From Escherichia coli (GTDB lineage: Bacteria > Pseudomonadota > Gammaproteobacteria > Enterobacterales > Enterobacteriaceae): DNA of 64,000 nt. Below are positions 48,370 to 51,236 of this stretch, one piece after another. A program made the translations under genes and the position numbers. A model generated the notes under the pieces. It had not been told where the DNA came from and ran no database searches. It worked only from the letters and a program-made list of their open reading frames with translations. Location: NCBI RefSeq assembly GCF_003334305.1, contig NZ_QOWS01000006.1, one strand, 5' to 3'. Position 1 is the first letter of the stretch. Each line of letters opens with the position of its first letter.

Positions 48370-48855
48370 GTGAAAAAGTGGTTATTAGCTGCAGGTCTCG
48401 GTTTAGCACTGGCAACTTCTGCTCAGGCGGCTGACAAAATTGCAATCGTCAACATGGGCAGCCTGTTCCAGCAGGTAGCGCAGAAAACCGGTGTTTCTAA
48501 CACGCTGGAAAATGAGTTCAAAGGCCGTGCCAGCGAACTGCAGCGTATGGAAACCGATCTGCAGGCTAAAATGAAAAAGCTGCAGTCCATGAAAGCGGGC
48601 AGCGATCGCACTAAGCTGGAAAAAGACGTGATGGCTCAGCGCCAGACTTTTGCTCAGAAAGCGCAGGCTTTTGAGCAGGATCGCGCACGTCGTTCCAACG
48701 AAGAACGCGGCAAACTGGTTACTCGTATCCAGACTGCTGTGAAATCCGTTGCCAACAGCCAGGATATCGATCTGGTTGTTGATGCAAACGCCGTTGCTTA
48801 CAACAGCAGCGATGTAAAAGACATCACTGCCGACGTACTGAAACAGGTTAAATAA
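48370..48855 (+). CDS. skp: periplasmic chaperone Skp
   Basis: 161-aa ORF, GTG start, signal peptide ending AQA. Confidence 0.9.
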
Positions 48856-48858
48856 GTA

Positions 48859-49884
48859 ATGCCTTCAATTCGACTGGCTGATTTAGCGCAGCAGTTGGAT
48901 GCAGAACTACACGGTGATGGCGATATCGTCATCACCGGCGTTGCGTCCATGCAATCTGCACAAACAGGTCACATTACGTTCATGGTTAACCCAAAATACC
49001 GTGAGCATTTAGGCTTGTGCCAGGCGTCCGCGGTTGTCATGACCCAGGACGATCTTCCTTTCGCGAAAAGTGCCGCGCTGGTAGTGAAGAATCCCTACCT
49101 GACTTACGCGCGCATGGCGCAAATTTTAGATACCACGCCGCAGCCCGCGCAGAACATTGCACCCAGTGCGGTGATCGACGCGACGGCGAAGCTGGGTAAC
49201 AACGTATCGATTGGCGCTAACGCGGTGATTGAGTCCGGCGTTGAACTGGGCGATAACGTGATTATCGGTGCCGGTTGCTTCGTAGGTAAAAACAGCAAAA
49301 TCGGTGCAGGTTCGCGTCTCTGGGCGAACGTAACCATTTACCATGAGATCCAGATCGGTCAGAATTGCCTGATCCAGTCCGGAACAGTGGTAGGCGCAGA
49401 CGGCTTTGGTTATGCCAACGATCGTGGTAACTGGGTGAAGATCCCACAGATTGGTCGCGTAATTATTGGCGATCGCGTGGAGATCGGTGCCTGCACAACC
49501 ATCGATCGCGGCGCGCTGGATGACACTATTATTGGCAATGGCGTGATCATTGATAACCAGTGCCAGATTGCACATAACGTCGTGATTGGCGACAATACGG
49601 CGGTTGCCGGTGGCGTCATTATGGCGGGCAGCCTGAAAATTGGTCGTTACTGCATGATCGGCGGAGCCAGCGTAATCAACGGGCATATGGAAATATGCGA
49701 CAAAGTGACGGTTACGGGCATGGGTATGGTGATGCGTCCCATCACTGAACCAGGCGTCTATTCCTCAGGCATTCCGCTGCAACCCAACAAAGTCTGGCGC
49801 AAAACCGCTGCACTGGTGATGAACATTGATGACATGAGCAAGCGTCTGAAATCGCTTGAGCGCAAGGTTAATCAACAAGACTAA
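48859..49884 (+). CDS. lpxD: UDP-3-O-(3-hydroxymyristoyl)glucosamine N-acyltransferase
   Basis: 341-aa ORF with hexapeptide repeats; recognised as LpxD. Confidence 0.9.
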
Positions 49885-49988
49885 CGTTCCATCTTTTGTT
49901 CGCCAAACTTTACGGCCTGTCTCATTCTTACGATTGCGGCAGGCCGTGTTATTATTGTCGTTTCTTATATTTTGACAGGAAGAGTATC

Positions 49989-50444
49989 TTGACTACTAAC
50001 ACTCATACTCTGCAGATTGAAGAGATTTTAGAACTTCTGCCGCACCGTTTCCCGTTCTTACTGGTGGATCGCGTGCTGGATTTTGAAGAAGGTCGTTTTC
50101 TGCGCGCAGTAAAAAATGTCTCTGTCAATGAGCCATTCTTCCAGGGCCATTTCCCTGGAAAACCGATTTTCCCGGGTGTGCTGATTCTGGAAGCAATGGC
50201 ACAGGCAACAGGTATTCTGGCGTTTAAAAGCGTAGGAAAACTGGAACCGGGTGAACTGTACTACTTCGCTGGTATTGACGAAGCGCGCTTCAAGCGCCCG
50301 GTCGTGCCTGGCGATCAAATGACCATGGAAGTCACTTTCGAAAAAACGCGCCGCGGCCTGACCCGTTTTAAAGGGGTTGCTCTGGTCGATGGTAAAGTAG
50401 TTTGCGAAGCAACGATGATGTGTGCTCGTAGCCGGGAGGCCTGA
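49989..50444 (+). CDS. fabZ: 3-hydroxyacyl-ACP dehydratase FabZ
   Basis: Track ORF over-extended; probable TTG start at 49989 ([29 protein letters not shown]...), 151 aa. Confidence 0.85.
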
Positions 50445-50447
50445 TAA

Positions 50448-51236
50448 GTGATTGATAAATCCGCCTTTGTGCATCCAACCGCCATTGTGGAAGAGGGCGC
50501 GTCAATTGGCGCGAACGCACACATTGGTCCTTTTTGTATCGTTGGACCCCATGTCGAAATTGGTGAGGGTACCGTACTGAAATCTCACGTTGTCGTGAAT
50601 GGTCATACTAAAATTGGCCGCGATAATGAGATTTATCAGTTCGCCTCCATCGGCGAAGTTAACCAGGATCTGAAATATGCTGGCGAACCGACCCGTGTGG
50701 AAATCGGCGATCGTAACCGCATTCGCGAAAGCGTCACCATTCATCGTGGCACAGTCCAGGGCGGTGGATTGACGAAGGTGGGCAGCGACAACTTACTGAT
50801 GATCAACGCGCACATTGCGCACGATTGTACGGTAGGTAACCGCTGTATTCTCGCCAACAACGCAACGCTGGCGGGTCACGTATCGGTTGACGACTTCGCG
50901 ATCATCGGCGGCATGACCGCAGTCCATCAGTTCTGCATCATTGGTGCGCACGTGATGGTTGGCGGCTGCTCCGGTGTGGCGCAGGACGTCCCTCCTTATG
51001 TCATTGCGCAGGGTAACCACGCAACGCCGTTCGGTGTCAATATCGAAGGGCTGAAGCGCCGCGGATTCAGCCGTGAGGCGATTACCGCTATCCGCAATGC
51101 GTATAAGCTGATTTATCGTAGCGGTAAAACGCTCGATGAAGTGAAACCGGAAATTGCTGAACTGGCGGAAACATATCCGGAAGTGAAAGCCTTTACCGAT
51201 TTCTTTGCACGCTCAACGCGCGGTCTGATTCGTTAA
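50448..51236 (+). CDS. lpxA: UDP-N-acetylglucosamine O-acyltransferase
   Basis: 262-aa ORF, GTG start; hexapeptide-repeat protein. Confidence 0.9.

Follow-up and report, generated by a model that had tools for sequence, protein, structure and literature searches.

Conserved GUG and UUG start codons in the frr-to-lpxA envelope-biogenesis gene cluster of Escherichia coli

Several described systems illustrate how non-AUG start codons relate to the output of a gene. In E. coli lacI, which encodes a low-copy regulator, a GTG start near-fixed in the species has been read as setting optimal expression, the effect being shown by an ATG swap (Nat Microbiol 2024, PMC11445065). On the scale of whole prokaryotic genomes, the statistical survey of Belinky, Rogozin and Koonin (2017; PMC5622118) found that genes with non-AUG starts possess stronger and better conserved Shine-Dalgarno sequences, and that conserved genes with high expression prefer AUG; its authors propose that some GUG starts, in genes that evolve slowly, are under purifying selection. 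Reporter experiments in the literature place the yield of GUG and UUG at 10-100% of AUG output. The AUU starts of infC and pcnB use non-AUG initiation as a regulatory handle and belong to another, much weaker class that is strongly discriminated by IF3, GUG and UUG being canonical near-cognates. Finally, the work of Burkhardt et al. (2017; PMC5318159) on ORF-centric mRNA structure, which does not address start-codon identity, treats such structure as the determinant of translation efficiency in operons.

The stretch of DNA analysed here (the window; 64,000 nucleotides) is a piece of the E. coli chromosome; it matches strain A7 at 100% identity, and the RefSeq annotation of that strain confirms its gene identities. 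It contains the cluster frr-dxr-uppS-cdsA-rseP-bamA-skp-lpxD-fabZ-lpxA-lpxB-rnhB-dnaE-accA, in which RefSeq annotation and sequence agree on five non-ATG starts, those of frr, cdsA, skp, fabZ and lpxA. All five are GTG or TTG, outside the infC/pcnB-type AUU class; elsewhere in the window an ATT start is seen only in pcnB. The initial annotation had named skp, fabZ, lpxA, uppS and frr; it was right about four of these (frr, skp, fabZ and lpxA) and only in part about uppS, and it overlooked cdsA. The non-ATG starts of the five genes are genuine, previously annotated and experimentally confirmed. Overall, the observation is real but ordinary and already known, and its earlier interpretation is only partly supported. 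Its practical value, chiefly for annotation, lies in confirming non-ATG starts for five essential envelope and translation genes, with cdsA joining the list. A literature search for an earlier paper on this run of non-ATG starts retrieved nothing relevant. The features discussed below are:

40747-40751, + strand: Shine-Dalgarno-like AAGGA of frr
40760-40762, + strand: frr GTG start (CDS 40760-41317; RefSeq-annotated)
42791-42796, + strand: tandem GTG-ATG start of uppS/ispU (GTG 42791, ATG 42794; CDS end 43552)
43554-43558, + strand: Shine-Dalgarno-like GGGGG run of cdsA
43565-43567, + strand: cdsA TTG start (CDS 43565-44422; 13 nt past the uppS stop; annotated)
48357-48363, + strand: TAAGGAG Shine-Dalgarno sequence of skp
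48370-48372, + strand: skp GTG start (CDS 48370-48855; annotated)
48859-48861, + strand: lpxD ATG start, a contrast gene (3 nt past the skp stop; weak Shine-Dalgarno match)
49977-49984, + strand: Shine-Dalgarno-like sequence of fabZ, AGGAAGAG
49989-49991, + strand: fabZ TTG start (CDS 49989-50444; annotated)
50434-50439, + strand: GGGAGG Shine-Dalgarno sequence of lpxA, within the 3' end of fabZ
50448-50450, + strand: lpxA GTG start (CDS 50448-51236; 3 nt past the fabZ stop; annotated)

Examination of the reading frames reveals that the in-frame coding pattern of each of the five genes begins at the GTG or TTG codon, with no better start upstream or nearby. In skp the GTG is the earliest possible start past the upstream in-frame stop and is hence the sole start that keeps the signal peptide (20 residues) whole; initiation at the next ATG would remove it. 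The lpxA GTG is also the first start past the upstream stop, and in both fabZ and lpxA over 40 codons of the ORF precede the next ATG. From the known protein sequences, we take these ATGs to fall at about residue 70 of FabZ and beyond residue 100 of LpxA. A longer fabZ ORF from TTG 49896 was considered and rejected, as in-frame stops break the extension in 56 of 80 other species; this explains the over-extension of many FabZ models in databases.

One reading of the annotated starts is that they are artefacts, the true starts being in-frame ATGs elsewhere in the ORFs. Such codons are indeed present at codon 13 of frr and at codon 37 of cdsA (43673), a gene whose TTG has only a weak Ribo-RET peak; in uppS the adjacent ATG is conserved and used. 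However, skp, fabZ and lpxA offer, on reading of their ORFs, no usable in-frame ATG from which a functional protein would result, and a 12-residue N-terminal peptide of frr detected in K-12, in the portion of the published N-terminomics data consulted, starts at the GTG. Furthermore, the stretches between the annotated starts and the internal ATGs of cdsA, frr and skp evolve as coding sequence (in codons 2-36 of cdsA, third-position variation is 0.385 versus 0.046-0.099 at positions 1 and 2), and the annotated starts carry initiation peaks. We accordingly regard an annotation artefact as highly improbable. The rows of the N-terminomics table that were considered contain no N-terminal peptide of FabZ, LpxA, CdsA or pre-Skp.

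The start of uppS is a separate case. RefSeq/PGAP places it at ATG 42794, and the GTG claimed by the initial annotation (42791) is present directly before it and is detected as an N-terminus: the portion of the published N-terminomics data consulted lists both MMLSATQ... and MLSATQ... for K-12. The tandem is identical across the sampled E. coli variants, but among relatives only the ATG, and not both starts, is conserved, and 66 of 70 other species have the non-start GTT before it. Of the two, the ATG is ancestral and the GTG a recent, Escherichia-specific addition, and initiation appears to occur at both; the conserved start of uppS is the ATG, unlike the GTG of K-12 and of the UniProt numbering. 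Use of an in-frame ATG, named initially as the evidence that would speak against these starts, does speak against the claim for uppS, where the adjacent ATG is both kept and used; skp, fabZ and lpxA have none that is usable.

Comparison with orthologues showed that the five non-ATG starts are near-invariant in Enterobacterales. The sample consisted of the 80 closest species from a scan of genome contigs, with 63-80 species per gene; a word-indexed protein search gave matches that, among those listed, were all at least 76% identical, and a representative protein search yielded metagenome proteins, with one distant contig (L088) proving useful and two others too short. The start is GTG in 63 of 63 species in frr (codon read at 40760), TTG in 71 of 71 in cdsA, GTG in 76 of 78 and TTG in the other 2 of 78 in skp (48370), TTG in 80 of 80 in fabZ (49989) and GTG in 79 of 80, with one ATG, in lpxA (50448); for frr, skp, fabZ and lpxA the initially proposed codon is thus upheld by position, annotation and conservation. 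ATG is tolerated at some of these positions: Blochmannia has it at frr, one Enterobacteriaceae genome at lpxA, and the three Morganellaceae genomes examined at both fabZ and lpxA.

The first bases of the five start codons yield a single A among 372 observations. As a neutral control in the same species and genes, four-fold degenerate G sites are invariant in 2.6% of cases and in 85% have changed to A in one or more of the species, the corresponding values for four-fold T sites being 0.9% and 70%. As only 1-5% of the four-fold sites in the five genes are as conserved as the start codons, purifying selection holds the five non-ATG starts. These values tell strongly against the idea that the starts are neutral relics, persisting through weak start-codon selection and too little time: such selection is weak on average in prokaryotes according to the literature, yet A was acquired at most four-fold G and T sites within the same species set, and we consider neutral persistence of the starts extremely unlikely. 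The first-base conservation could partly mirror the near-invariance of the whole initiation region (in fabZ, positions -15 to -2 are invariant) rather than a specific advantage of the non-ATG codon.

Published K-12 data allow these starts to be compared in strength, as the initiation-region sequences are the same as in K-12 except for one base at position -1 of lpxA. The sources were Table S2 of the INRI-seq study, which also gave Ribo-RET values, a 2019 proteome and Burkhardt 2017. For frr, skp, fabZ and lpxA an initiation peak at the annotated start is seen in each assay, Ribo-RET in vivo and INRI-seq in vitro; for cdsA it is seen in vivo only. The respective INRI-seq and Ribo-RET values are 126-153 and 92 for skp, 27-56 and 240 for fabZ, and 11-21 and 121 for lpxA; in cdsA the Ribo-RET peak is weak (7.5) and INRI-seq shows none, and the ATG start of lpxD has a peak in neither. 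Apart from cdsA, the non-ATG peaks are among the strongest in the cluster, those of skp, fabZ and frr being the strongest, and the same three genes have its highest translation efficiency (1.26-1.53), ribosome density and protein abundance. The remaining non-ATG genes, lpxA and cdsA, have an efficiency of about 0.2, low like the ATG genes rseP, lpxB and lpxD; translation of uppS, also with an ATG, is low too. At similar mRNA levels translation efficiency spreads 5- to 10-fold, from 1.51 in skp versus 0.37 in lpxD to 1.53 in fabZ versus 0.19 in lpxA.

These data bear directly on the initial proposal that weak initiation codons tune the stoichiometry of the operon, that is, that GTG and TTG throttle their genes relative to ATG neighbours. 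Reporters that differ only in the start codon do yield less from GUG and UUG than from AUG, purifying selection acts on the codons in this cluster, and the low efficiencies of lpxA and cdsA agree with such a throttle. Against it, skp, fabZ and frr lead the cluster by every measure above, the ATG genes lpxD, lpxB, rseP and uppS are low, and start-codon class does not separate the genes by translation efficiency (Mann-Whitney p = 0.34). The description of these codons as weak is therefore contradicted for skp, fabZ and frr; that output in the cluster is set at the level of translation is borne out, but the start codons are not what explains the stoichiometry, and we consider the throttle unlikely.

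A better correlate of translation efficiency is the folding energy predicted around the start (Spearman rho 0.85, p = 4e-4, for a 61-nt prediction over 12 genes). Shine-Dalgarno duplex energies average -7.5 kcal/mol in the non-ATG genes versus -4.3 kcal/mol in the ATG genes (Mann-Whitney p = 0.011), a trend repeated with published Shine-Dalgarno values (p = 0.027); across all five non-ATG genes they range from -4.3 to -10.3 kcal/mol, with spacings of 4-7 nt. The genes also differ in packing: skp-lpxD and fabZ-lpxA are stop/start pairs 3 nt apart, and lpxA/lpxB and lpxB/rnhB overlap by 1 nt and 4 nt, whereas skp, fabZ and frr are preceded by spacers of 105-292 nt without close stop/start packing. 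When isolated fragments are assayed in vitro, recognition persists at the lpxA start and is absent at those of lpxD and lpxB, a hint regarding coupling. A sigma-70 promoter over the fabZ start was considered and rejected, as its TTGACA at 49973 is non-conserved (TAGACA in many species) and has no matching -10 element. Rfam gave no structured RNA match in 40000-53000, and matches resembling promoters or terminators in 48200-50600 occurred no more often than in shuffled sequence.

Non-ATG starts occur in 5 of the 10 genes from frr to lpxA, versus 4 of the 46 other genes in the window. With a 10% non-ATG background the binomial probability of 5 in 10 is 0.0016, and that of such a run anywhere in the 56-gene window is 0.016-0.025. 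In a genome of 4300 genes 1.6-2.6 such runs (about one to three) are expected by chance, so that the clustering is not significant genome-wide; this estimate derives from literature background frequencies of 9-17% and simulation.

The clustering could alternatively reflect coordinated conditional control, in which the five non-AUG starts are jointly sensitive to IF3 level, to ppGpp via IF2 or to low temperature, linking growth state, through Skp, FabZ, LpxA, CdsA (CDP-diglyceride synthase) and the ribosome recycling factor, with envelope synthesis and the recycling of ribosomes. In vitro, non-AUG mRNAs become less active and compete less well under ppGpp and when nutrients are limiting, GUG mRNAs do so at low temperature too, and codon conservation far exceeds the neutral expectation; the joint presence of ATG at fabZ and lpxA in the Morganellaceae could reflect linked constraints. 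However, the same in vitro study stresses the dominance of context, the literature yielded no condition-dependent data on these five genes, the clustering lies within genome-wide chance, and the shared fabZ/lpxA switch amounts to a single lineage event per gene. Such joint control seems improbable. We view as quite unlikely the more elaborate form of the idea, in which a shared translational throttle makes the supply of envelope lipids and outer-membrane proteins depend on growth state and the Morganellaceae fabZ and lpxA ATGs represent a co-adapted pair. To our knowledge, an IF3 response has been described for none of frr, cdsA, skp, fabZ and lpxA.

In light of the above observations, we propose as the probable explanation that these are long-established GUG and UUG starts within conserved initiation regions, whose expression set-point is under selection, whose efficiency follows mRNA openness and whose co-location is coincidental. 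The GUG or UUG codons of these essential or near-essential genes would be read as methionine by the initiator tRNA, each within a conserved initiation region that on average has a stronger Shine-Dalgarno sequence than those of its ATG neighbours. The start codon would then be one fixed component of the expression set-point of the gene, its effect on output being assumed, and stabilising selection on that set-point, as suggested by conservation of sequence, would prevent drift to ATG. The ranking of the genes would depend not on start codon but on the openness of the mRNA around the start and on whether an intergenic spacer or tight packing behind a neighbour precedes it, which may be how skp, fabZ and frr come to be translated more heavily than the other ORFs of the cluster although none of the three starts with ATG. 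In uppS, set apart from the five, a newer GTG would have arisen one codon upstream of the ancestral ATG. Five such starts in ten genes would most simply be a coincidence frozen by a very old gene order.

Under this explanation, the cluster illustrates clearly that low expression need not follow from a near-cognate start codon, and it offers a few slow-evolving genes of high expression that keep GUG or UUG against the general preference for AUG. Since GUG and UUG are actively maintained in these genes, they are good candidates for start-codon swaps directed at the balance of lipid A and phospholipid (FabZ, LpxA). Compared with the infC and pcnB starts, the latter in the same window, the likeness extends to non-AUG initiation and the codon class differs. 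The cluster resembles lacI in its near-fixed non-ATG starts; it differs in that its products are abundant enzymes and chaperones, that its set-point is deduced from conservation rather than from an ATG swap, and that three of the five genes are the best translated in their cluster. Both features of the genome-scale survey (PMC5622118), a strong Shine-Dalgarno sequence and purifying selection, are shared by the cluster, although the five genes oppose the favouring of AUG in conserved, highly expressed genes. Likewise, the span of efficiencies within this operon, about 10-fold at similar mRNA levels, and its relation to local folding, here a simple 61-nt prediction over 12 genes, parallel the ORF-centric mRNA structure described by Burkhardt et al. 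(PMC5318159).

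The five non-ATG starts of the envelope-biogenesis cluster, those of frr, cdsA, skp, fabZ and lpxA, are real GUG or UUG codons that are selected, lie in strong initiation regions and are not tied to low output. The 12-kb region around them matches E. coli strain A7 at 100% identity and, with a single exception, all 5,426 complete E. coli genomes at 95% or more; its gene order in the RefSeq annotation is pyrH, frr, ispC (dxr), ispU (uppS), cdsA, rseP, bamA, skp, lpxD, fabZ, lpxA, lpxB, rnhB, dnaE and accA; the gene names in the initial annotation are therefore correct. When each annotated start was read directly in the window sequence, ATG was found at ispC, rseP, bamA, lpxD, lpxB, rnhB, dnaE and accA, and the non-ATG codons at the positions tabulated below. 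The original observation, which had listed skp, fabZ, lpxA, frr and uppS as non-ATG genes, is partly confirmed: the first four hold, but PGAP starts uppS at an ATG (42794) with the GTG (42791) directly 5' of it, and the TTG of cdsA had been overlooked. The individual starts are already present in standard annotation and published initiation maps, so they are not new as facts.

Start codons (window position for non-ATG starts), translation efficiency (TE; Burkhardt et al., PMC5318159, which covers most cluster genes), INRI-seq signal (Table S2, five replicates) and in vivo Ribo-RET values of Meydan et al. from the same table
frr: GTG, 40760; TE 1.26; INRI-seq 31-104; Ribo-RET 547
uppS: GTG/ATG; TE 0.31; INRI-seq weak; Ribo-RET 9.3
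cdsA: TTG, 43565; TE 0.21; INRI-seq 0; Ribo-RET 7.5
rseP: ATG; TE 0.14; INRI-seq 6-15; Ribo-RET 26
bamA: ATG; TE 0.86; INRI-seq 21-61; Ribo-RET 5.9
skp: GTG, 48370; TE 1.51; INRI-seq 126-153; Ribo-RET 92
lpxD: ATG; TE 0.37; INRI-seq 0; Ribo-RET 0
fabZ: TTG, 49989; TE 1.53; INRI-seq 27-56; Ribo-RET 240
lpxA: GTG, 50448; TE 0.19; INRI-seq 11-21; Ribo-RET 121
lpxB: ATG; TE 0.21; INRI-seq 0; Ribo-RET 0
dnaE: ATG; INRI-seq 0; Ribo-RET 0
accA: ATG; TE 0.92

No in-frame start was found in the window upstream of the annotated codons of skp and lpxA, and a start at the next in-frame ATG of skp would remove its signal peptide. The first 40 codons of fabZ and lpxA in the window are devoid of in-frame ATGs; the first internal methionine presumably lies near residue 70 of FabZ and beyond residue 100 of LpxA, going by the known protein sequences, so that an ATG start there would cost much of each protein. 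An in-frame TTG upstream of fabZ (49896), which would give an ORF of 182 aa, was rejected as the start, the extension containing an in-frame stop in 56 of 80 other species. Many Enterobacterales FabZ database models (P0001-P0026) are 174-208 aa long, not 151, apparently because gene callers prolong the ORF upstream instead of taking the TTG start.

Published K-12 initiation data apply to the same sequence as that of the window, the initiation regions differing by one base, at -1 of lpxA. The TRAINSPOTTER resource (2026 N-terminomics) lists an frr N-terminal peptide beginning at the GTG, and two uppS N-termini: one that starts at the GTG, MMLSATQPLSEK..., and one that starts at the ATG, MLSATQPLSEK.... 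Use of an in-frame ATG, named beforehand as evidence against the observation, is therefore seen for uppS only. This resource also has an entry for an internal N-terminus of Skp, at Met60 (METDLQAK...; 48547-48549), without Ribo-seq support; a form beginning at this codon would be without the signal peptide.

A FabZ scan of species-representative genomes yielded 80 loci from the 80 closest species (Enterobacteriaceae, Erwiniaceae and Yersiniaceae), most spanning the whole cluster, in which the codon aligned to each E. coli start was read. The frr start is GTG in 63/63 species, that of cdsA TTG in 71/71, skp GTG in 76/78 and TTG in 2/78, fabZ TTG in 80/80, and lpxA GTG in 79/80 and ATG in one, while the ATG-start genes retain ATG across the same species. 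At uppS it is the ATG that is conserved, the codon before it being GTT in 66/70 species; the E. coli GTG is therefore a recent change, and the GTG-ATG tandem is the same in three E. coli variant genomes inspected. As a neutral control, 13 cluster genes were aligned by codon across the same species. Where E. coli has G at a four-fold site (n=465), 2.6% of the sites do not vary at all, 5.4% vary in no more than two species and 85% have A in at least one; where it has T (n=432), 0.9% do not vary and 70% have A in some species. At the first bases of the five starts A was seen once in 372 observations, so purifying selection maintains their non-ATG state. The entire initiation regions of these genes are also highly conserved, so the start codon belongs to a larger constrained unit.

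Most of the non-ATG starts also persist in the more distant relatives Pectobacterium, Leminorella, Baumannia and Blochmannia; Leminorella differs at skp (TTG) and cdsA (GTG), and Blochmannia at frr (ATG). In three Morganellaceae genomes (Photorhabdus, Xenorhabdus and Arsenophonus) both fabZ and lpxA begin with ATG. On these contigs (L083, L094 and L087, respectively) fabZ lies at 10001 and lpxA at about 10457-10468; the fabZ start is displaced by one codon, and in Photorhabdus and Xenorhabdus TAG occupies the former TTG position. TTG at fabZ and GTG at lpxA are retained in other Enterobacterales families. The same gene order occurs on a high-GC proteobacterial metagenome contig, where frr, skp and cdsA begin with GTG, and fabZ and lpxA with ATG. 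ATG is therefore tolerated at fabZ, lpxA and frr in some lineages, and the GTG codons of frr and skp appear to predate the TTG of fabZ and the GTG of lpxA. The uppS genes of Blochmannia (contig L085, 2625), Baumannia (L086, 2795) and Xenorhabdus (L094, 2821) begin GTG-ATA..., the ancestral ATG being gone and GTG the sole start, the reverse of most Enterobacterales.

Non-ATG starts occur in 9 of the 56 annotated genes of the window, 5 of 10 from frr to lpxA versus 4 of 46 elsewhere. Chance estimates rest on literature background frequencies, namely 9% in a set of 688 E. coli starts with experimental support and 17% in the E. coli annotation of 1997. If 10% of starts are taken to be non-ATG, five or more in 10 genes have a probability of 0.0016; that of a comparable run anywhere in the 56-gene window is about 0.02, and about 1.6-2.6 comparable runs are expected by chance in a 4,300-gene genome. 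The run is striking locally, without genome-wide significance.

Further features of the window are:
1543-4143, minus strand: htrE (Yad fimbrial usher), annotated in this strain as a pseudogene that contains an internal stop
6453-7850, minus strand: pcnB, annotated start ATT, one of two confirmed AUU-start genes in E. coli
49911-49948: strong hairpin in the lpxD-fabZ spacer, an 11-bp outer stem plus inner pairs, then a U-rich stretch
50322-50324: fabZ codon 112, ACC (Thr112); Ile in 75 and Val in 5 of 80 other species
50447: -1 base of lpxA, A in the window, giving fabZ a tandem TGA-TAA stop; C in K-12 and most species

Strain A7 is the sole match among 5,426 E. coli genomes to a 55-nt query centred on codon 112, so I112T is a private allele in the essential dehydratase FabZ. 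The A allele at 50447 is matched in 360 of the 5,426 genomes, and position -1 is reported to affect initiation. The 136-nt region with the hairpin folds at -32.8 kcal/mol (z = -2.3); the hairpin has no Rfam match, and the mRNA level does not fall from lpxD to fabZ.

The proposal that weak codons tune the stoichiometry of the cluster is partly supported. From skp to lpxA mRNA levels are similar (925-1320; Burkhardt et al.), but TE is unequal, as is protein abundance in a proteome data set (Skp 3409 and FabZ 2826, far above LpxD 702, LpxA 270 and LpxB 41); therefore translation sets large output differences. However, start-codon class does not separate the cluster genes by TE (Mann-Whitney p = 0.34). 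TE correlates with predicted folding energy from -30 to +30 (rho 0.85, p = 4e-4, n = 12), more weakly with upstream spacer length (rho 0.61), and not with Shine-Dalgarno strength among the cluster genes. Shine-Dalgarno matches are stronger in the non-ATG genes, with a mean of -7.5 kcal/mol versus -4.3 in ATG genes (p = 0.011), in line with the compensation reported by Belinky et al. (PMC5622118).

Reporter output of GUG and UUG is 10-100% of that of AUG. We propose that the start codon may be one fixed component of each gene's expression set-point, and that a switch to AUG would push output past its optimum. Non-AUG starts show sensitivity to ppGpp, nutrient limitation or cold in vitro, and it is possible that they add such sensitivity in these genes, in which case the cluster's non-AUG genes would be coupled to growth state. 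A literature search found no paper treating these starts as a cluster; the closest parallels are the GTG start of lacI (PMC11445065), compensation between start codon and Shine-Dalgarno sequence, and structure-determined TE in operons.
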